From NCBI GenBank assembly GCA_000004985.1, contig GG739004.1: a stretch of DNA of 11,051 nt. One strand, given 5' to 3'. Below the pieces are notes generated by a model that ran no database searches, was not told the origin of the DNA, and saw only the letters and a list, made by a program, of their open reading frames with translations. The DNA comes from Naegleria gruberi. Its lineage: Eukaryota. Below are positions 1 to 11,051 of this stretch, piece after piece. The position numbers were made by a program, and so were the translations under genes. Every line of letters starts with the position of its first letter. Positions within the stretch are counted from its first letter, which is position 1.

Positions 1-857
1 ATCCCTTGTAACCAAATTATTCTTTTGTTGTTTAGTTGATTTGTGTCCATACCACGAGCAATAACTCTCGCATGACAACAAAATGGAGTGAGAAATGATA
101 AAATGAAGAGAACTAAGGTACAAATTACGGTTCCAAGAAGGGAATAATAACTGGTAAAATCGTCTTGAATGTTTTGGAAAGCTAATGGAAGATCCTTTCC
201 CTGAATGCTGCAAGATTGAGGATTGACTACTGTTTTTATCAATGAAAACCATCCATCTTCACAAAAGCAAACACTCTCACCTTGATATCCTTCTCCACAA
301 TCCATTTGGAGAAATTTTACATCGTCTTCTGAATGAATTTCTGAATATTTGCAAGAGTTTGACTCATCAATGTACTCGTCTGTTCCACAATTACTCTTTG
401 TCTCACAAACTTGTTTCAAACAATTGAAAATAAGATCTCCTGAGCAATTGGGTTTACAAAATGAATTAATAAGAATGGTGTCAGTTGGACAATTATATGG
501 AAGTCTGGAAGCTTTTGAATAATCGTGATGGGTTGAAGTAAACATATCATATGATGTTGGATCTAGATTTATCACTTGTTCATAAAAAGTAACCTGGCAA
601 TTTCTAACTGATGCTTTATAGTAGAAATTAAATCTATAATAGGAAAACGGTCCTATATTGAAAGAAAAAGATTGGAGTGAACATCCAGAAAGAAATAACT
701 CATCTGAAACAGATCTGTGGTTATTGTTGAAAACCTCCATGAAAGAATAACCTGTACTGTTAAACGTTGTTGAGCCCATCTCCACAACGTAAAGAGAGCA
801 AAAACCTGAGTGAATCTTAAAACCGATTACCAGAAGTGCCAACAACAAATCTAACAT
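1..857 (-). CDS. Cys-rich type-I membrane protein with EGF-like motif. The 5' end is complete (ATG is the reverse complement of 855-857); the 3' end runs past the window start.
   Basis: I translated the minus strand by hand from the ATG at 857 to position 1: 285 codons with no stop, ending ...NNKRIIWLQG. The ORF track omits it because it has no in-window stop. The N-terminus MLDLLLALLVIGFKIHSGFCS is hydrophobic and signal-peptide-like. The ectodomain is Cys-rich with NxS/T sites and one EGF-like signature, CGEGYQGESVCFCEDGWF. A single TM-like segment (YYSLLGTVICTLVLFILSFLTPFCC) is followed by basic residues (HARVIARG). The start context is A-rich (ccaaaaaaaaATG). At roughly one-third G+C, 285 open codons are very unlikely by chance. 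Confidence 0.55.
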   Translation of the reverse strand, partial: MLDLLLALLVIGFKIHSGFCSLYVVEMGSTTFNSTGYSFMEVFNNNHRSVSDELFLSGCSLQSFSFNIGPFSYYRFNFYYKASVRNCQVTFYEQVINLDPTSYDMFTSTHHDYSKASRLPYNCPTDTILINSFCKPNCSGDLIFNCLKQVCETKSNCGTDEYIDESNSCKYSEIHSEDDVKFLQMDCGEGYQGESVCFCEDGWFSLIKTVVNPQSCSIQGKDLPLAFQNIQDDFTSYYSLLGTVICTLVLFILSFLTPFCCHARVIARGMDTNQLNNKRIIWLQG

Positions 858-889
858 TTTTTTTTGGTTTTTTTTGGTAATTTCCTGAT
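858..889. repeat. 32-nt spacer between two same-strand (minus) CDSs, made of two oligo-T runs (tttttttttggtttttttt on the plus strand)
   Basis: Read directly. The homeodomain CDS stop is at 890-892 and the next CDS begins at 857. The spacer is almost entirely A/T homopolymer. Confidence 0.8.
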
Positions 890-1405
890 TTATTCCTTGA
901 TTATTTCTCCTTGTTGGAAAATACATTCCTTTGGAACTGTATCACCTACAGTTTTTTTCCAAGCCCTTCCTCTTGTATTGATAAACCAATTGGTTATTTG
1001 ATTTTTTGTTAAACCAGTCTGTTCCATCAACATTTTCTTTTCAGAACTTGTTGGGAAGGGGTGTGCTAAGTGGTCCAAAAACCAGTTGTTAAGAACATCT
1101 GTTGGTTTTCCTCCAAGGCTTAATTTTTGAGATTCAATAACACCAAGAGATTTGATTAATTCTTTTTCTCCTTCCTCTACAGCCTTTTCTTTATAGGTTT
1201 GGATCAGTAGGGTTGCCTTGGGGTTTAGGATGGATTTTAAAATTAATTCATCAAGATCAAACATAAGCTGGGACAAATGACCTTCAATTTCTTCCTTCCT
1301 ACTGATTGCTCTTTGGAATTTTTCTGATGTTGATGATATTTTCTCGTACCTGCTCTTAGTTTGTTCTCTAAAATCTTGAATCGAGGAAAACAACATTGCC
1401 GACAT
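890..1405 (-). CDS. TALE-class homeodomain transcription factor, 171 aa (CUP9/TOS8/MEIS/KNOX-like). The homeodomain is C-terminal.
   Basis: Complete ORF. The C-terminal region [51 protein letters not shown] carries the TALE signature: a three-residue loop extension (PFP) between helices 1 and 2, and the WFxNxR recognition helix. The best resemblance is to fungal Cup9/Tos8-type 'TGLTKxQxxNWFINxRRR'. The start context is A-rich (aaaaaaaATGtcg). Confidence 0.8.
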
Positions 1406-2717: not shown

Positions 2718-3554
2718 TTATTCATCTTGAGTGCTTTCTTCTGTTTCTTCTTTTGGTTCCTTTGCCTCTTCATCTTCACCATACTGAATAGTCATATCAA
2801 CATAGGAGAGGATGTATTCTATCGATTCTTCATCAGTAATATCCAATTCAAGAAATCCAACCATGTTGAAGTTGTCAATTAATGAAACAATTGCATGATT
2901 GAGTTTGGAGAAAGATGAATTTCTCTTGTGGGGATTGGTTTCTTTCTCTAAAGCGTAGAGAAGCTCAGTTTTGTCAGGAACTTTTAGCTTTTCTAAAATG
3001 TTTGATCTTTCCTTATTTCCTTTTAGAGTATCACATTTTGTGAAAATATTGACATGAGGAGTCTCGAATTGAATCATTGCAGAAAGGGCCTGGGTAATAC
3101 CACTGATATATTTTGTAACATCTTCTATAAATTGTACGTCCATACAATAGACACAACAAACCCTATATCCTCTTCGTTCCAACTCCTTTACAAATAACTG
3201 CATGATTGGTACATGACTGTAAAGTTCAATTTGACCTGGACAATCAAAGATTAAATAGTCATTCTCATAATCACTCAATTCTTCCGAGAACCAATCTTCT
3301 AAATTCTGCATTAAATATTCCATACAGTAAACTAGACCTCCGTTAGGACCAAGTTGAAACTCCTCCATGACATCCTCCAATGTTACCAAGTCACGAATAT
3401 CAAATGCACATTGATATTTAAACTCCTCAGCCGCAGGATCTAAATTTACAACATGAATAATTCTCTTTGTATTGTTACCATGTTCTTGAATTTGGCAATA
3501 AGTCGATTTTCCGGAACCAGCAGGTCCAATCACTAGTTGTGCGTGTTTCCCCAT
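2718..3554 (-). CDS. GPN3: GPN-loop GTPase 3 (GPN3/Fet5 family), complete, 278 aa, no intron
   Basis: The N-terminus MGKHAQLVIGPAGSGKSTYC is the hallmark GPN3 start (P-loop GPAGSGKST). The C-tail is acidic (EDEEAKEPKEETEESTQDE). The start context is A-rich (caaaaaaaATGggg) and the stop is TAA. Confidence 0.9.
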   Translation of the reverse strand: MGKHAQLVIGPAGSGKSTYCQIQEHGNNTKRIIHVVNLDPAAEEFKYQCAFDIRDLVTLEDVMEEFQLGPNGGLVYCMEYLMQNLEDWFSEELSDYENDYLIFDCPGQIELYSHVPIMQLFVKELERRGYRVCCVYCMDVQFIEDVTKYISGITQALSAMIQFETPHVNIFTKCDTLKGNKERSNILEKLKVPDKTELLYALEKETNPHKRNSSFSKLNHAIVSLIDNFNMVGFLELDITDEESIEYILSYVDMTIQYGEDEEAKEPKEETEESTQDE

Positions 3555-4459
3555 TTTTTTTGAGTATTAAAAATGTTGTGGGCTGCTTCCACCACAGATA
3601 ACCAAAGGTCCTTGTCTCTAAGGTTGTTAGCAACAAAGTCAATTTGCTCTTTACAACAACACTTCATTCCACATTTGAGGAGGTTCTCAATGGTAATTGT
3701 GTCTCTTTCATTCTCTACAACCCTTGAAAAACATTGAAGCAATCCAGAACAAATTAGGTCATAGTTTTCATTTGTAATATTGTATCCAGATTGTTTAGCA
3801 ACTAAATTGGCCAAATCTAGGAGGTAAGGTTTTATATTTCCTGAAAGAAGTATCGAGAAAAACTCATGACATTTGTCTAAATATGATTCACGTTTTTCTT
3901 TCAAAGTTATGGGTGTGTATGTTTGATCTAAAGCTACCAGAGAACGTTGATTGAGAAGAATGTTGGATTCATTTCCCTCATTGTCCCAAAAATATGAGCA
4001 GGGGGTTCTGTCTGAGTTATTGAGCAAAATGTCAACAAATAACAGCTTTCCAAAATCAATCCAAACTTGTTCTTTTTCGAAATCTCGAAGTTTTTGTAAG
4101 CTAACGAGGTTGGGCACGGATTCCATCACTAATATTGACTTCATATGACTGAATTCTGATTCAATTTTTAAAACTATTTCCTGTTTTTCAACACGAACTC
4201 CCCAGTCGTGAATTTTTTGAATCCAAATATCAACAGAGAATCGAGGATCATTACATTGAAACAAAACAAACATTTGAGGAGAATACAGCCCAAAAAACGA
4301 AGCAAAACAGGTTCCAAACACCTGCTCAGCCAAGTCATATTTGCAACATTTCAAAACCAAGGAGATTTTTTCATATTGGACAAATAGAATACTAGCGTCA
4401 TATTTCGAGCAGGGAACAACCGAAATCACTTCTCCAGTGTTTGTAAAATCCAAAGACAT
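3533..4459 (-). CDS. Hypothetical protein, 308 aa, with no confidently recognised domain. Its 3' end overlaps the GPN3 start by 22 nt.
   Basis: An ORF of 309 codons in AT-rich sequence is far too long to be chance. The start context is A-rich. It contains kinase-like short motifs (VLK...AEQ...LVME...WIDFGK...VDILLNN) and several Cys pairs (LKCCKY, KCCCKE). None is diagnostic. Confidence 0.55.
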   Translation of the reverse strand: MSLDFTNTGEVISVVPCSKYDASILFVQYEKISLVLKCCKYDLAEQVFGTCFASFFGLYSPQMFVLFQCNDPRFSVDIWIQKIHDWGVRVEKQEIVLKIESEFSHMKSILVMESVPNLVSLQKLRDFEKEQVWIDFGKLLFVDILLNNSDRTPCSYFWDNEGNESNILLNQRSLVALDQTYTPITLKEKRESYLDKCHEFFSILLSGNIKPYLLDLANLVAKQSGYNITNENYDLICSGLLQCFSRVVENERDTITIENLLKCGMKCCCKEQIDFVANNLRDKDLWLSVVEAAHNIFNTQKKWGNTHN

Positions 4460-4507
4460 TCTTTTTTTTAATTTAGGAATTGGTTTTGTTTTGTTCTTTT
4501 AACAAAA
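4460..4507. promoter_or_regulatory. 48-nt spacer between divergently transcribed CDSs (308-aa minus and 162-aa plus); a minimal bidirectional promoter/5'UTR region
   Basis: Start codons at 4459 (minus) and 4508 (plus). The spacer is T/A-rich: ctttttttaatttaggaattggttttgttttgttcttttaacaaaa. Confidence 0.3.
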
Positions 4508-4996
4508 ATGAGTTTACTAGATGCACCACTTATTTCCCCAATTTCCATTGCAAATTCTTCTGCTCCTGTTTTACGAAGGAATGATACAATACCAAGGGCT
4601 TCCATCATGGAGTCCTCTTTTTTGGAAGATATTTCAGAAATTCATGAGGTTACGATCAATAGAAACATAAATGATGAACTGAACAGTCTTCAACACGATC
4701 TTTCCAGAATTTCTCAAGGAAGAATATTTGACACAGGACCAATTGATGAAATTATGCAAGATACAATATTTACAACCGAAGAAAGAAATGAAATTTACTT
4801 AAATGATAAGATAATTAACGATTTTTCATCACGAGTAATGCTTGAAAATTATATTCTATCTAAATGTGAATCGGAACTTGACAATACAAAGAATAACAAA
4901 ATTTGGAATGAAGATGTAAGAGAAAAATTTATTGGTACTGATGATTGGGATTACCTACATCATGATGAGCTCAAATCTGCCTTCAAAAAATTTTAA
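4508..4996 (+). CDS. Hypothetical protein, 162 aa (acidic, Ser/Asn/Glu/Asp-rich; no recognised domain)
   Basis: Complete ORF with an A-rich start context (aacaaaaATGagt) and a TAA stop, 52 nt before the second gap. 163 open codons is unlikely by chance at this base composition (about 7% stop-codon frequency per codon). Confidence 0.5.
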   Translation: MSLLDAPLISPISIANSSAPVLRRNDTIPRASIMESSFLEDISEIHEVTINRNINDELNSLQHDLSRISQGRIFDTGPIDEIMQDTIFTTEERNEIYLNDKIINDFSSRVMLENYILSKCESELDNTKNNKIWNEDVREKFIGTDDWDYLHHDELKSAFKKF

Positions 4997-5048: not shown

Positions 5049-8000
5049 NNNNNNNNNNNNNNNNNNNNNNNNNNNNNNNNNNNNNNNNNNNNNNNNNNNN
5101 NNNNNNNNNNNNNNNNNNNNNNNNNNNNNNNNNNNNNNNNNNNNNNNNNNNNNNNNNNNNNNNNNNNNNNNNNNNNNNNNNNNNNNNNNNNNNNNNNNNN
5201 NNNNNNNNNNNNNNNNNNNNNNNNNNNNNNNNNNNNNNNNNNNNNNNNNNNNNNNNNNNNNNNNNNNNNNNNNNNNNNNNNNNNNNNNNNNNNNNNNNNN
5301 NNNNNNNNNNNNNNNNNNNNNNNNNNNNNNNNNNNNNNNNNNNNNNNNNNNNNNNNNNNNNNNNNNNNNNNNNNNNNNNNNNNNNNNNNNNNNNNNNNNN
5401 NNNNNNNNNNNNNNNNNNNNNNNNNNNNNNNNNNNNNNNNNNNNNNNNNNNNNNNNNNNNNNNNNNNNNNNNNNNNNNNNNNNNNNNNNNNNNNNNNNNN
5501 NNNNNNNNNNNNNNNNNNNNNNNNNNNNNNNNNNNNNNNNNNNNNNNNNNNNNNNNNNNNNNNNNNNNNNNNNNNNNNNNNNNNNNNNNNNNNNNNNNNN
5601 NNNNNNNNNNNNNNNNNNNNNNNNNNNNNNNNNNNNNNNNNNNNNNNNNNNNNNNNNNNNNNNNNNNNNNNNNNNNNNNNNNNNNNNNNNNNNNNNNNNN
5701 NNNNNNNNNNNNNNNNNNNNNNNNNNNNNNNNNNNNNNNNNNNNNNNNNNNNNNNNNNNNNNNNNNNNNNNNNNNNNNNNNNNNNNNNNNNNNNNNNNNN
5801 NNNNNNNNNNNNNNNNNNNNNNNNNNNNNNNNNNNNNNNNNNNNNNNNNNNNNNNNNNNNNNNNNNNNNNNNNNNNNNNNNNNNNNNNNNNNNNNNNNNN
5901 NNNNNNNNNNNNNNNNNNNNNNNNNNNNNNNNNNNNNNNNNNNNNNNNNNNNNNNNNNNNNNNNNNNNNNNNNNNNNNNNNNNNNNNNNNNNNNNNNNNN
6001 NNNNNNNNNNNNNNNNNNNNNNNNNNNNNNNNNNNNNNNNNNNNNNNNNNNNNNNNNNNNNNNNNNNNNNNNNNNNNNNNNNNNNNNNNNNNNNNNNNNN
6101 NNNNNNNNNNNNNNNNNNNNNNNNNNNNNNNNNNNNNNNNNNNNNNNNNNNNNNNNNNNNNNNNNNNNNNNNNNNNNNNNNNNNNNNNNNNNNNNNNNNN
6201 NNNNNNNNNNNNNNNNNNNNNNNNNNNNNNNNNNNNNNNNNNNNNNNNNNNNNNNNNNNNNNNNNNNNNNNNNNNNNNNNNNNNNNNNNNNNNNNNNNNN
6301 NNNNNNNNNNNNNNNNNNNNNNNNNNNNNNNNNNNNNNNNNNNNNNNNNNNNNNNNNNNNNNNNNNNNNNNNNNNNNNNNNNNNNNNNNNNNNNNNNNNN
6401 NNNNNNNNNNNNNNNNNNNNNNNNNNNNNNNNNNNNNNNNNNNNNNNNNNNNNNNNNNNNNNNNNNNNNNNNNNNNNNNNNNNNNNNNNNNNNNNNNNNN
6501 NNNNNNNNNNNNNNNNNNNNNNNNNNNNNNNNNNNNNNNNNNNNNNNNNNNNNNNNNNNNNNNNNNNNNNNNNNNNNNNNNNNNNNNNNNNNNNNNNNNN
6601 NNNNNNNNNNNNNNNNNNNNNNNNNNNNNNNNNNNNNNNNNNNNNNNNNNNNNNNNNNNNNNNNNNNNNNNNNNNNNNNNNNNNNNNNNNNNNNNNNNNN
6701 NNNNNNNNNNNNNNNNNNNNNNNNNNNNNNNNNNNNNNNNNNNNNNNNNNNNNNNNNNNNNNNNNNNNNNNNNNNNNNNNNNNNNNNNNNNNNNNNNNNN
6801 NNNNNNNNNNNNNNNNNNNNNNNNNNNNNNNNNNNNNNNNNNNNNNNNNNNNNNNNNNNNNNNNNNNNNNNNNNNNNNNNNNNNNNNNNNNNNNNNNNNN
6901 NNNNNNNNNNNNNNNNNNNNNNNNNNNNNNNNNNNNNNNNNNNNNNNNNNNNNNNNNNNNNNNNNNNNNNNNNNNNNNNNNNNNNNNNNNNNNNNNNNNN
7001 NNNNNNNNNNNNNNNNNNNNNNNNNNNNNNNNNNNNNNNNNNNNNNNNNNNNNNNNNNNNNNNNNNNNNNNNNNNNNNNNNNNNNNNNNNNNNNNNNNNN
7101 NNNNNNNNNNNNNNNNNNNNNNNNNNNNNNNNNNNNNNNNNNNNNNNNNNNNNNNNNNNNNNNNNNNNNNNNNNNNNNNNNNNNNNNNNNNNNNNNNNNN
7201 NNNNNNNNNNNNNNNNNNNNNNNNNNNNNNNNNNNNNNNNNNNNNNNNNNNNNNNNNNNNNNNNNNNNNNNNNNNNNNNNNNNNNNNNNNNNNNNNNNNN
7301 NNNNNNNNNNNNNNNNNNNNNNNNNNNNNNNNNNNNNNNNNNNNNNNNNNNNNNNNNNNNNNNNNNNNNNNNNNNNNNNNNNNNNNNNNNNNNNNNNNNN
7401 NNNNNNNNNNNNNNNNNNNNNNNNNNNNNNNNNNNNNNNNNNNNNNNNNNNNNNNNNNNNNNNNNNNNNNNNNNNNNNNNNNNNNNNNNNNNNNNNNNNN
7501 NNNNNNNNNNNNNNNNNNNNNNNNNNNNNNNNNNNNNNNNNNNNNNNNNNNNNNNNNNNNNNNNNNNNNNNNNNNNNNNNNNNNNNNNNNNNNNNNNNNN
7601 NNNNNNNNNNNNNNNNNNNNNNNNNNNNNNNNNNNNNNNNNNNNNNNNNNNNNNNNNNNNNNNNNNNNNNNNNNNNNNNNNNNNNNNNNNNNNNNNNNNN
7701 NNNNNNNNNNNNNNNNNNNNNNNNNNNNNNNNNNNNNNNNNNNNNNNNNNNNNNNNNNNNNNNNNNNNNNNNNNNNNNNNNNNNNNNNNNNNNNNNNNNN
7801 NNNNNNNNNNNNNNNNNNNNNNNNNNNNNNNNNNNNNNNNNNNNNNNNNNNNNNNNNNNNNNNNNNNNNNNNNNNNNNNNNNNNNNNNNNNNNNNNNNNN
7901 NNNNNNNNNNNNNNNNNNNNNNNNNNNNNNNNNNNNNNNNNNNNNNNNNNNNNNNNNNNNNNNNNNNNNNNNNNNNNNNNNNNNNNNNNNNNNNNNNNNN

Positions 8001-8938
8001 NNNNNNNNNNNNNNNNNNNNNNNNNNNNNNNNNNNNNNNNNNNNNNNNNNNNNNNNNNNNNNNNNNNNNNNNNNNNNNNNNNNNNNNNNNNNNNNNNNNN
8101 NNNNNNNNNNNNNNNNNNNNNNNNNNNNNNNNNNNNNNNNNNNNNNNNNNNNNNNNNNNNNNNNNNNNNNNNNNNNNNNNNNNNNNNNNNNNNNNNNNNN
8201 NNNNNNNNNNNNNNNNNNNNNNNNNNNNNNNNNNNNNNNNNNNNNNNNNNNNNNNNNNNNNNNNNNNNNNNNNNNNNNNNNNNNNNNNNNNNNNNNNNNN
8301 NNNNNNNNNNNNNNNNNNNNNNNNNNNNNNNNNNNNNNNNNNNNNNNNNNNNNNNNNNNNNNNNNNNNNNNNNNNNNNNNNNNNNNNNNNNNNNNNNNNN
8401 NNNNNNNNNNNNNNNNNNNNNNNNNNNNNNNNNNNNNNNNNNNNNNNNNNNNNNNNNNNNNNNNNNNNNNNNNNNNNNNNNNNNNNNNNNNNNNNNNNNN
8501 NNNNNNNNNNNNNNNNNNNNNNNNNNNNNNNNNNNNNNNNNNNNNNNNNNNNNNNNNNNNNNNNNNNNNNNNNNNNNNNNNNNNNNNNNNNNNNNNNNNN
8601 NNNNNNNNNNNNNNNNNNNNNNNNNNNNNNNNNNNNNNNNNNNNNNNNNNNNNNNNNNNNNNNNNNNNNNNNNNNNNNNNNNNNNNNNNNNNNNNNNNNN
8701 NNNNNNNNNNNNNNNNNNNNNNNNNNNNNNNNNNNNNNNNNNNNNNNNNNNNNNNNNNNNNNNNNNNNNNNNNNNNNNNNNNNNNNNNNNNNNNNNNNNN
8801 NNNNNNNNNNNNNNNNNNNNNNNNNNNNNNNNNNNNNNNNNNNNNNNNNNNNNNNNNNNNNNNNNNNNNNNNNNNNNNNNNNNNNNNNNNNNNNNNNNNN
8901 NNNNNNNNNNNNNNNNNNNNNNNNNNNNNNNNNNNNNN
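5049..8938. other. Assembly gap (3890 N)
   Basis: A literal run of n. ORFs 4932..8954, 5030..8950, 5032..9033 and 5039..8959, and the X-portion of 5016..9926, are artefacts. Confidence 1.
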
Positions 8939-9896
8939 GATCACCACCATATAATTTGATAATATCCATGGTTGCCATGGCTAAACCAGCACCATTGACA
9001 ATACAACCAATATTACCATCAAGACCAATATAATTCAAATCATATTTAGCAGCACGAACATCACGAGGATCTTCTTGAGTGATATCTTTAAGTGCAAAAA
9101 GTTCTTTTTGACGGAAGAAAGCATTGTCATCAATGTTAACTTTAGCATCTGCACAAATAACTTTTCCGTCAGCAGTTTCAATGAGAGGATTAATTTCCAA
9201 AAGTACAGAGTCTGTCTTCATAAACAAATTGTACAATTTTGTAATTTGGTCAACAGCTTGGTCAAGCAATTCATCACGGAAACCCAATTTACGAGCTAAA
9301 CCTTCAGCTTGTGATTTGTGCAATCCTTCCTTTACACTAATAGGAATTGTATGAATTTCTTCAGGACTTTCTCTAGCAACATCTTCAATGGCCATACCAC
9401 CTTGGGTACTACCAATTAATACAGGTCCACCAGATTGACGATCCAAAAGAATAGCCAAGTATAATTCTCTACGAGCATATAATCTTTCTTGAACATAAAC
9501 CTTGTTACATGGTTTACCTTCAGCACCAGTTTGTTTTGTAACTAGTACTTGTCCTAGCATCTTTGATACGTAATCTTCAGCTTCTCCAATTGAAAGAGCC
9601 TTTTGAACACCTCCTTTAAGTCCACTCTTAAATTTACCTCTACCTCTACCACCAGCTAACACTTGAGCCTTGACAATATAATCGACATGATTTCCCAATT
9701 CAGTGCAGGCCTTCTTGGTTTCTGTTGCACTTGTTAGTACTTTGCCTCTTGGAACGGAAATATCATAACTTCTGAACAAATCTTGTGCTTGGTATTCGTG
9801 GAGATTGAGAAGACGTTTTTGTGTTGTGTTGGTTGAGATTTGAGAGAGGTTCTTTTTACCCAATACTCTAAAGATACGATTGGATGATGAGAACAT
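8939..9896 (-). CDS. LSC2: Succinyl-CoA ligase (succinate--CoA ligase, ADP/GDP-forming) beta subunit, mitochondrial. The N-terminal ~319 aa are visible; the 3' part is lost in the gap.
   Basis: The real start is the ATG that is the reverse complement of 9894-9896 (MFSSSNRIFRVLGKK...), not the upstream TTG the ORF track used. It begins with a basic, Ser-rich presequence, then the ATP-grasp N-domain LHEYQAQDLFRSYDISVPRG...KAQVLAGGRGRGKF and the CoA-ligase signature GNIGCIVNGAGLAMATMDIIKLYGG. The 5' leader is A/C-rich: aacaacaaaaaacaacaacaaaaaATG. Confidence 0.9.
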
Positions 9897-10483
9897 TTTT
9901 TGTTGTTGTTTTTTGTTGTTATTCAAGAATCCCGTTAGCGTATGATAAAGAGGAGCTTTCTTCGCCTTTTCTTACAAAGTTTTTAGGGCATTGTCGTCAT
10001 CATTGAGAAACTTCATTTTTGCTTGTTTCACGAAATTATGCACCTATCAAAGCATTAGGATATTGTTTTTTTATCATTAGAATTAAGAGTTAATTTCGCC
10101 ATTTATCTTGTTTTTCAAAACTTAAAACATGGTTATGTTGTCATGCAACTTTTAAATCAAAGATATTAACTTCGTCAAAAGAATAAGAAAAAAAATGAAA
10201 ACCAATCTCCATTGCTGTGGTTGGTAGTGGTTTGAGTGCATTGGAGCACAATATTTCACTGTCAGAAGTGAACAATTCAAGGAGCAAGTAAATCAATGGA
10301 TAGATCAGAAACAAGTAATTTTATGGGATGATCCTATTATATCATTAGAGAATGACATGACAATTAGGCCAAAATCCGCCCAACTTGGCTGTTTGAGCGA
10401 TAATAATAACTCTAACGACGTGATTTCAAGATATATTTCAACAAGTAATGGTATGAATGCTCTTTGTAAATCAATGAAATCAG

Positions 10484-10552
10484 AGATTTTAGACACAGCC
10501 AAAATTTCAAATGTTTATGTCAATTTTGAAATTTTGGCTGTGTCTAAAATCT
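10484..10552. repeat. Perfect inverted repeat: 28-bp arms (10484-10511 and 10525-10552) around a 13-nt loop. It would form a hairpin in either strand.
   Basis: The left arm agattttagacacagccaaaatttcaaa is exactly the reverse complement of the right arm tttgaaattttggctgtgtctaaaatct, checked base by base. The loop is tgtttatgtcaat. Confidence 0.9.
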
Positions 10553-10814
10553 TTTATGAAACTATTAGAACGTTTCTAAAACAAGAATGGGTCTGAAATT
10601 ATTACACAAGCTGCTGATCATGTCAATGTTCATAGATGGAGATATTCTATTCCATTTTCAACAAATTCAACCTACTCTGGAAGTGAATGGTATAATGATG
10701 GAATTGGTGATTGGACTAACAGGGAAGAGTCGAAGGAGCTTACTTAAGTGGAGTTGAAATGGCTGATTTCTTAATTTCAAAATTGTAGTTTATTTCAGTT
10801 TGTTTTTTAATAAT

Positions 10815-11051
10815 TTAATTCTTCTTCAATAAAGCTTCAACACTTTCACGGAAAACTCTAGTATGGACATCAACATCTTCTTCAGTATGGTTAACACAAA
10901 TTAAAGCCATGTTGTGGAATGGTGTCATCAAAATACCACGATTAAGGGCATACAAGTGCATATATTGGTCCAATTCAAAGTCACAAACAGCAGCAGCTTC
11001 TCCACCATTGACTGGTTCGGTTGGTCTAAACCAATATTCAGTACGACAACC
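10815..11051 (-). CDS. C-terminal fragment (78 aa plus stop) of a PLP-dependent class-III aminotransferase-like protein (glutamate-1-semialdehyde aminomutase-like C-terminus). The 5' part lies beyond the window end.
   Basis: Reading the minus strand from 11051 gives GCRTEYWFRPTEPVNGGEAAAVCDFELDQYMHLYALNRGILMTPFHNMALICVNHTEEDVDVHTRVFRESVEALLKKN*, with no stop for 78 codons and a TAA stop that is the reverse complement of 10815-10817. The '...HTEEDVD...' segment resembles the conserved C-terminal region of class-III aminotransferases/GSA-aminomutases. The ORF track omits it because it has no in-window start. Confidence 0.45.
   Translation of the reverse strand, partial: GCRTEYWFRPTEPVNGGEAAAVCDFELDQYMHLYALNRGILMTPFHNMALICVNHTEEDVDVHTRVFRESVEALLKKN

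Follow-up and report, generated by a model that had tools for sequence, protein, structure and literature searches.

A 22-nt same-strand overlap between an actin-fragmin-kinase-like open reading frame and GPN3 in Naegleria gruberi

The stretch of DNA analysed here, referred to below as the window, comprises 11,051 nt of contig GG739004.1 of the Naegleria gruberi assembly GCA_000004985.1. It is a complete small scaffold of strain NEG-M, probably an alternative haplotype, and is gapped by two runs of N (1993-2641 and 5049-8938). On its minus strand, two intact open reading frames (ORFs) in different frames share 22 nt, with the GPN3 frame lying at -1 relative to the frame of the upstream, kinase-like ORF. 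The features of the locus are collected in the table. The initial annotation had reported both ORFs, their coordinates and the shared A8 run and ATG, and the ORF list and the junction sequence bear it out on all of these points. In the kinase frame, the junction reads ...gcc cac aac att ttt aat act caa aaa aaa tgg gga aac acg cac aac TAG TGA, and the GPN3 ATG takes its A from the end of the second aaa codon and its TG from the beginning of tgg. The kinase-like protein ends in ...AAHNIFNTQKKWGNTHN, followed by the TAG at 3535..3533 and directly by an in-frame TGA at 3532..3530; the peptide ...NIFNTQKKWGNTHN would belong to its C-terminal tail. The GPN3 product begins with MGKHAQLVIGPAGSGKST, from the ATG at 3554..3552. 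An A_AAA_AAA heptamer, in phase with the kinase frame, lies at 3560..3554 inside the A8 run.

Table. Features of the overlapping locus, in coordinates of the window
Feature	Position	Strand	Description
Shared coding stretch	3533..3554	minus	22 nt; kinase codons 302-308 and stop; GPN3 codons 1-7 and the first base of codon 8
Kinase-like ORF	3533..4459	minus	308 aa; TAG stop at 3535..3533
GPN3	2718..3554	minus	278 aa; start ATG at 3554..3552
A8 run	3554..3561	minus	A-rich leader and the A of the GPN3 ATG; read in the kinase frame as (C)AA-AAA-AAA = Q-K-K
Tandem stops TAG-TGA	3530..3535	minus	End of the kinase ORF; built from GPN3 codons Leu7-Val8-Ile9 (CTA GTG ATT)
GPN3-frame TAA	3567..3569	minus	Four codons 5' of the ATG; bars an unspliced 5' extension of GPN3
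Spacer	4460..4507		48 nt separating the start codons of the kinase (4459, minus) and of a divergent 162-aa ORF (4508, plus)

The identity of the downstream gene is clear. Its product matches Pfam family PF03029 with an E-value of 1.1e-76 (258 bits against a cut-off of 27), and the P-loop GPAGSGKS at residues 10-17 and the GPNG motif (Gly-Pro-Asn) are both visible in the translation. The protein is identical to N. gruberi XP_002668591.1/EFC35847.1, which bears the UniRef name GPN-loop GTPase 3, and is 99% identical to the allele EFC46522.1 (279 aa) on a 782-kb N. gruberi scaffold. Identity amounts to 90-91% with the N. fowleri and N. lovaniensis proteins and to 51-60% with plant, fungal and animal GPN3. 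The copy in the window is without a conserved Thr codon found in the main allele. The start of GPN3 is immovable, since an in-frame TAA lies four codons 5' of the ATG and the next methionine is residue 63, beyond the P-loop. An alternative start was considered and is ruled out by this TAA (3569..3567) and by the location of Met63 after the P-loop. The N-terminus MGK[H/Y/F]AQ[L/I]V is common to N. lovaniensis, N. fowleri and Willaertia magna; together with the TAA and the position of the P-loop it fixes the start, in agreement with the earlier view that the start had not been mis-called.

The upstream 308-aa ORF is predicted, by homology, to encode a complete actin-fragmin-kinase-like catalytic domain, and its kinase activity is likewise a prediction. 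Residues 18-172 match PF09192 (actin-fragmin kinase, catalytic) with an E-value of 3.6e-12 and 46.8 bits, the gathering cut-off of this family being 24 bits. At the local base composition (35% GC), the probability of encountering no stop in 308 codons is 1.5e-10. This low probability and the presence of a recognisable protein domain lead us to conclude that the ORF is not a chance ORF. A word-indexed homology search with the 308-aa sequence gave no match, and an exhaustive HMMER search was required. Among 1.84 billion representatives, it returned 151 homologues with a top identity of 37%; those that can be named come from Willaertia magna, N. fowleri and Acrasis kona, and identity to the relatives ranges from 25 to 37%. 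In an alignment with 11 heterolobosean-type homologues, the ORF keeps all 18 invariant columns, among them K37, E113, D143, N147, N148, D150, R151 and D178, which include the motif D143-x3-N147-N148-x-D150-R151. These conserved residues are presumed to be catalytic. The ATG of the ORF stands in the usual A-rich context (aaaaaaaagaATG). Most homologues carry an N-terminal extension of about 50 residues, from which the ORF is free. Its closest relative, the N. fowleri protein P0123, is also without the extension, and the absence is therefore a trait of the subfamily. P0123 comes from an unrelated locus of the N. fowleri assemblies, where its ORF is flanked by a WD40 gene and a Ras gene.

The predicted structure agrees with this assignment. 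An AlphaFold2 model built on the family alignment reached a pLDDT of 87.9 and a pTM of 0.87. A Foldseek search of this model against the PDB placed 1CJA_A at the top (E 9.8e-13, TM 0.65), with 310 aligned columns that span the whole ORF; the runner-up had an E-value of 1.4e-3. Family and fold thus match the catalytic domain of the Physarum actin-fragmin kinase (PDB 1CJA; PF09192) along the full Naegleria ORF, which differs from the Physarum kinase in being only 18% identical to 1CJA and in consisting of the catalytic domain alone. Homology and fold together indicate that both of the overlapping ORFs encode genuine proteins. Neither the kinase ORF nor anything more than 37% identical to it was found in any protein collection searched, and the gene appears to be unannotated in N. 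gruberi. What this analysis adds is therefore an actin-fragmin-kinase-like gene that the N. gruberi catalogue apparently does not contain and that the initial annotation did not recognise.

The junction is found a second time in a 1,390-bp metagenome contig from ENA (assembly ERZ929261; L007), which holds the last 146 codons of the kinase and a 279-aa GPN3. The gene calls on this contig, 3-443 and 422-1261, produce the same 22-nt overlap. L007 and the window agree at every base between 3975 and 3493, A8 included, and L007 departs from the window by 7 SNPs and a 3-nt indel, all within GPN3. Because its GPN3 protein is distinct from those of the two NEG-M alleles, we regard L007 as an independent third haplotype that was independently assembled.

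The length of the overlap can be understood from the GPN3 sequence itself. Each kinase-frame codon consists of positions 2-3 of one GPN3 codon and position 1 of the next. At the start codon, ATG|G yields TGG; obtaining TGA there would require a codon for residue 2 that starts with A, yet Gly2 is conserved. The boundaries from Gly2/Lys3 to Gln6/Leu7 (G-K-H-A-Q-L) give GGA, AAC, ACG, CAC and AAC, with no stops among them. The first possible kinase-frame stop falls at Leu7|Val8 (CTA|G = TAG), and a backup follows at Val8|Ile9 (GTG|A = TGA). As these codons show, the conserved MGKHAQ peptide permits no kinase-frame stop ahead of the Leu7/Val8 codons. The GPN3 gene of N. lovaniensis has the identical CTAGTGATT, yet no same-strand ORF lies upstream of it, which implies that TAG-TGA is pre-existing GPN3 sequence. 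In N. fowleri the corresponding sequence is CTGGTGATT, which would place a TGA one codon later. For an ORF that enters the GPN3 leader in the kinase frame, the 22-nt overlap is therefore obligatory. At the local composition, a random frame continues for about 14 codons on average before it meets a stop; given this value and a GPN3 peptide that offers no possible stop before codons 7-9, the length of the overlap is unsurprising.

The A8 run also has a simple counterpart elsewhere. In all GPN3 orthologues compared, a run of A7-A9 lies 0-20 nt 5' of the ATG, and at least four A occupy positions -6 to -1 in 17 of the 22 annotated genes at three related loci. The A-run is the usual start context across the genus. 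The A-rich Kozak context and the Q-K-K-W reading that were first pointed out for A8 are both present; of the two, the A-rich context is simply that of the genus, as the 17 of 22 genes show.

The genomic surroundings of GPN3 differ among the species examined. The gene 5' of GPN3 is transcribed from the opposite strand, at a distance of 20-252 nt, in N. fowleri, N. lovaniensis and Willaertia and likewise in L006, a Naegleria-like metagenome contig. Since the upstream neighbour is on the opposite strand in these four relatives, GPN3 can be regarded as an independent unit that has a promoter of its own. The adjacency of the kinase and GPN3 seems to be specific to the N. gruberi lineage. Two metagenome scans, one for the kinase protein and the other for a degenerate A6-ATG-GPN3 pattern, gave no match and no second species with this adjacency. 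An insertion of the kinase between conserved neighbours was also considered and could not be shown, the divergent 162-aa ORF of the window not being homologous to the 479-aa gene that lies 5' of GPN3 in N. fowleri. When the 70 nt 5' of GPN3 were aligned for five taxa, the A-run alone was common to them and no convincing promoter motif was seen. A scan for bacterial promoters and terminators, which are irrelevant in Naegleria, remained at background level, and no tRNA or Rfam family was detected in the window.

Genes are closely spaced in the annotated loci of these relatives. Spacers measure 2-162 nt between convergent genes (including values of 2, 3 and 4), 31-438 nt between divergent genes and 50-537 nt between tandem genes, in a small sample of 23 pairs. 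Because annotated spacers are so short, transcript overlap must be common in the relatives. The smallest tandem spacer is 50 nt among the 8 annotated tandem pairs, and a true overlap of coding sequences (CDSs) lies beyond this sampled range. RsfS and CDC45 are apparently fused in the N. lovaniensis annotation. Literature searches returned nothing specific on Naegleria UTRs, overlaps or polycistrons. The description of the arrangement as exceptional for a eukaryote, which was made initially, appears too strong in view of the shortest spacers in the relatives, which measure 2-4 nt for convergent, 31 nt for divergent and 50 nt for tandem genes, and of the overlapping transcription in microsporidia summarised in PMC2742732.

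We propose that the locus contains two real, separately transcribed genes that are very tightly packed and give rise to overlapping transcripts, and we consider this reading probable. In the compact N. gruberi genome, the kinase and GPN3 follow one another on the same strand without any spacer, and they would function separately. Having no stop of its own before the GPN3 leader, the kinase frame runs via CAA AAA AAA, takes ATG-G as TGG and continues through GPN3 codons 2-6, until it is stopped at the first possible TAG (Leu7-Val8, CTA|G) with the TGA behind it. On this reading, the nine-residue tail QKKWGNTHN is a by-product of the GPN3 sequence, appended to the last helix of the kinase. Transcription of GPN3 may begin from its own start region within the last kinase codons, leaving a very short A-rich 5' leader, and the kinase mRNA may be cleaved and polyadenylated within the GPN3 CDS, so that the two transcripts would overlap. 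Each protein would be translated from its own mRNA, and the adjacency would have arisen in the N. gruberi lineage. Among the alternatives that were originally put forward, we regard overlapping transcripts as the likeliest; a bicistronic read-through mRNA, although conceivable, finds no support. The arrangement looks like the ordinary outcome of very tight gene packing and not like a new mechanism.

Two alternatives would remove the overlap altogether. The kinase gene might end before 3554 by way of an unrecognised 3' intron or an alternative 3' exon, in which case the two CDSs would not overlap. Short introns of 45-48 nt do occur in Naegleria genes, and in the kinase model, whose last helix spans residues 283-307, the confidence is only about 60 for the final eight residues, over the overlapped tail, as expected for a weakly constrained tail. 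However, no GT[AG][ATG]GT donor is present in the kinase ORF or in the 400 nt that follow it. The introns used as a reference were three from annotated Naegleria and Willaertia neighbours, 45-48 nt long, of which two start with GTAGGT or GTAAGT and the Willaertia one with GTCAAT. The homologues are colinear with the ORF to its C-terminal end, and the structural match to 1CJA covers the entire ORF. Past the last aligned motif, the tail is between 10 residues shorter and 7 longer than those of the homologues, which is within the family range, whereas no member of the family alignment would have a shorter C-terminus than a protein deprived of the overlapped tail. The comparison of C-termini that the initial annotation had suggested therefore supports the ...WGNTHN ending. 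Since the homologues are colinear to the end and a donor-like motif is absent, the 3' intron that it had also envisaged finds no support, and we judge this alternative very unlikely. Alternatively, the overlap could be an artefact, due either to a length error in the A8 homopolymer or to a mis-join of the small gapped scaffold. The window is indeed a minor scaffold of 11 kb, interrupted by two N gaps, and its GPN3 is missing the conserved Thr codon of the main allele. L007, however, stems from a different haplotype and spans the junction identically from 3975 to 3493, with the same A8. As its junction is identical base for base, A8 is not a sequencing error; the indel that had been envisaged for this run is refuted, and an artefact is extremely improbable.

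Two further alternatives accept the overlap and differ in what they make of it. The upstream ORF might be a silent or dying lineage-specific paralogue that happens to lie beside GPN3 and is not expressed, so that a single functional CDS would use the shared 22 nt. Several observations fit such a history: the ORF occurs neither in the N. gruberi proteome nor in any collection searched, it is merely 25-37% identical to any relative and is without a close orthologue, it is not beside GPN3 in the other species examined, and it is without the N-terminal extension of about 50 residues found in most homologues. The last of these is weakened by P0123, in which the absence is a subfamily trait, and the first may be explained by eukaryotic gene finders, which normally forbid an overlap of same-strand CDSs; we find this a plausible reason for the missing annotation. 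A silent copy would also not be expected to keep 308 stop-free codons in DNA of 35% GC (P = 1.5e-10), 18 of 18 invariant family residues, a confident full-domain fold and the usual A-rich context at its start. Between the two haplotypes, moreover, 0 differences in 442 nt of the kinase compare with 7 in 837 nt of GPN3, although these numbers are small. We therefore consider a silent copy unlikely. The other alternative is a translational linkage on one mRNA, either by termination-reinitiation or through a kinase-GPN3 fusion, produced by a -1 slip on A_AAA_AAA or by transcriptional slippage that lengthens the run to A9. The geometry is suggestive. The first base of the GPN3 ATG lies 19 nt 5' of the kinase stop TAG, a distance compatible with termination-reinitiation, and a conventional promoter would not fit outside the CDS. 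The GPN3 frame is exactly -1 with respect to the kinase frame, and A_AAA_AAA (3560..3554) follows the last GPN3-frame stop (TAA 3569..3567), the GPN3 frame being open from 3566, so that a slippery heptamer leads into an open -1 frame. A slip would yield ...NTQKK-MGKHAQ..., with the fusion peptide ...NTQKKMGKHAQLVIGPAGSGK. However, neither a stimulatory structure nor conservation in relatives, which would be looked for in programmed -1 frameshifting, was found. The 126 nt 3' of the A-run fold no better than their shuffles (MFE -16.7 against a mean of -18.7 kcal/mol, z = +0.69, with 155 of 200 shuffles as good), and four relatives have GPN3 by itself, with a divergent gene as its upstream neighbour. 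In this genus, the A-run is part of the generic context of start codons, a combination of frame and heptamer phase like this one would arise by chance in about one third of cases, and no PF09192 domain occurs among the GPN3 homologues listed. Reinitiation is inefficient in the known viral cases and would poorly suit an essential housekeeping gene. Translational linkage is accordingly a highly improbable account of the locus. That A8 is a functional recoding or coupling site, acting through a -1 slip or an A9 fusion or through reinitiation at the GPN3 AUG on a bicistronic mRNA, we hold to be more doubtful still; if it were true, such coupling would be exemplified in a cellular eukaryotic gene pair and not in a virus, and in an organism related to the polycistronic Euglenozoa.

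The reading as two separately transcribed, tightly packed genes can be set beside several known systems. Termination-reinitiation is known from viral gene pairs such as RSV M2-1/M2-2, calicivirus VP1/VP2 and influenza B M1/BM2, in which the AUG lies from a few to about 30 nt 5' of the upstream stop. The Naegleria geometry fits both viral reinitiation and -1 frameshifting, with A_AAA_AAA in the right phase; unlike the viral systems, the locus is without a downstream RNA structure, its A-run is generic, and a bicistronic mRNA is unsupported. Prokaryotic overlaps are mostly 1 or 4 nt long and serve translational coupling on polycistronic mRNA. Same-strand overlaps in prokaryotes typically originate from the loss of a stop codon, with the ORF extending to the next stop (PMC3887535, PMC10666635). 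The Naegleria pair resembles them in that the downstream start is embedded, in another frame, in the final part of the upstream ORF; in contrast to the prokaryotic pairs, nothing at the Naegleria locus indicates coupling or a shared mRNA.

Among eukaryotes, short CDS overlaps have been reported in nucleomorph genomes. The compact genomes of the microsporidia Encephalitozoon cuniculi and Antonospora locustae form overlapping transcripts, each mRNA giving rise to one protein, as related in the part of PMC2742732 that cites Williams et al. 2005 and Corradi et al. 2008. The likeness to microsporidia resides in the dense packing and in transcription of one gene that begins or ends in its neighbour, as outlined there (PMC2742732); for the Naegleria pair, we infer such a transcript overlap. 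Unlike the microsporidia and nucleomorphs, Naegleria is a free-living amoeba and not a reduced parasite or endosymbiont, and the overlap involves same-strand CDSs and not UTRs alone. The Naegleria genome is about 41 Mb in size.

The overlap alone reveals no new mechanism, and a clean, short same-strand CDS overlap in a free-living heterolobosean is a modest novelty. For the evolution of such pairs, the locus illustrates how a conserved downstream N-terminus sets both the length and the sequence of an overprinted C-terminal tail. It further offers a concrete place in a free-living eukaryote at which promoter and poly(A) function inside a neighbouring coding sequence may be considered. The kinase gene was probably missed because gene finders disallow same-strand CDS overlap, which serves as a warning for annotation: tightly packed Naegleria genes may be dropped or fused.

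The window, which is a whole scaffold of N. gruberi NEG-M, duplicates part of the 782-kb scaffold, with 99% protein identity, and from this sequence comparison the 11,051-bp scaffold probably represents an unmerged alternative haplotype. Runs of N break it in two places (1993-2641 and 5049-8938). The GPN3 allele carried by the window differs at codon 22 (3492/3493, minus strand), where one codon (AAC/ACA) is missing and Thr22 is lost from YCQ-T-IQEH, just C-terminal of the P-loop. Sequence comparison places Thr at this position in the main-scaffold allele, in L007 (a metagenome contig of a separate haplotype), and in N. fowleri, N. lovaniensis and Acrasis; the matching residue in Willaertia GPN3 is Ala. 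The missing codon is either a true in-frame deletion allele or an error of the minor scaffold.

Further ORFs of the window and some features in relatives are listed in the table below. The exact sequence of the 171-aa homeobox ORF was not found in the protein collections searched; therefore, its annotated model, if any exists, differs from the ORF called here. The succinyl-CoA ligase beta-type ORF is truncated by a 3,890-nt gap. The TTG given as its start codon is probably incorrect; 10 codons further in there is an ATG (MFSSSNRIF...).

Coordinates of additional ORFs in the window and of related or closely spaced genes in other species
Feature	Locus	Position	Strand	Basis
162-aa ORF, divergent from the kinase ORF	window	4508..4996	plus	ORF listing
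171-aa ORF, TALE/KN homeobox domain	window	890..1405	minus	PF05920, E 1.4e-18
Succinyl-CoA ligase beta-type protein, N-terminal part	window	8939..9926	minus	ATP-grasp_2, E 1.5e-69
P0123 ORF	L008 (N. fowleri assembly)	3596-4606		ORF call
P0123 ORF	L009 (N. fowleri assembly)	73-1083		ORF call
Convergent pair, 2-4 nt spacer	L001 (N. fowleri)	10119/10123		
Convergent pair, 2-4 nt spacer	L005 (Willaertia)	5425/5428		
Convergent pair, 2-4 nt spacer	L005 (Willaertia)	6846/6851		

The nearest relative of the 308-aa actin-fragmin-kinase-like ORF is P0123, a 336-aa N. fowleri ORF with a PF09192 domain. P0123 is known solely as an ORF called on N. fowleri contigs from ENA and Logan, and not as an NCBI-named protein. 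Annotation of this subfamily may be incomplete in N. fowleri as well.

Close packing is evident on the other side of the kinase ORF, where only 48 nt (4460..4507) separate its ATG on the minus strand from that of the divergent 162-aa ORF on the plus strand. This spacer has to hold both 5' leaders and any bidirectional promoter. For the 162-aa ORF, a Pfam search gave no match and the protein collections searched did not contain the exact sequence.

Tight spacing also appears in the relatives. The N. lovaniensis locus L004 carries a single annotated 942-aa product with CDC45 and RsfS domains (10042-12837, cut by the locus end), whereas N. fowleri L001 has two separate genes (10123-11010 and 11088-12834) with a 77-nt spacer. 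Judged by this arrangement, the N. lovaniensis product is probably an annotation fusion of close tandem genes. Convergent pairs in N. fowleri and Willaertia are packed even to stop-to-stop spacers of only 2-4 nt; therefore, their 3' UTRs must overlap the neighbor's coding region on the opposite strand.
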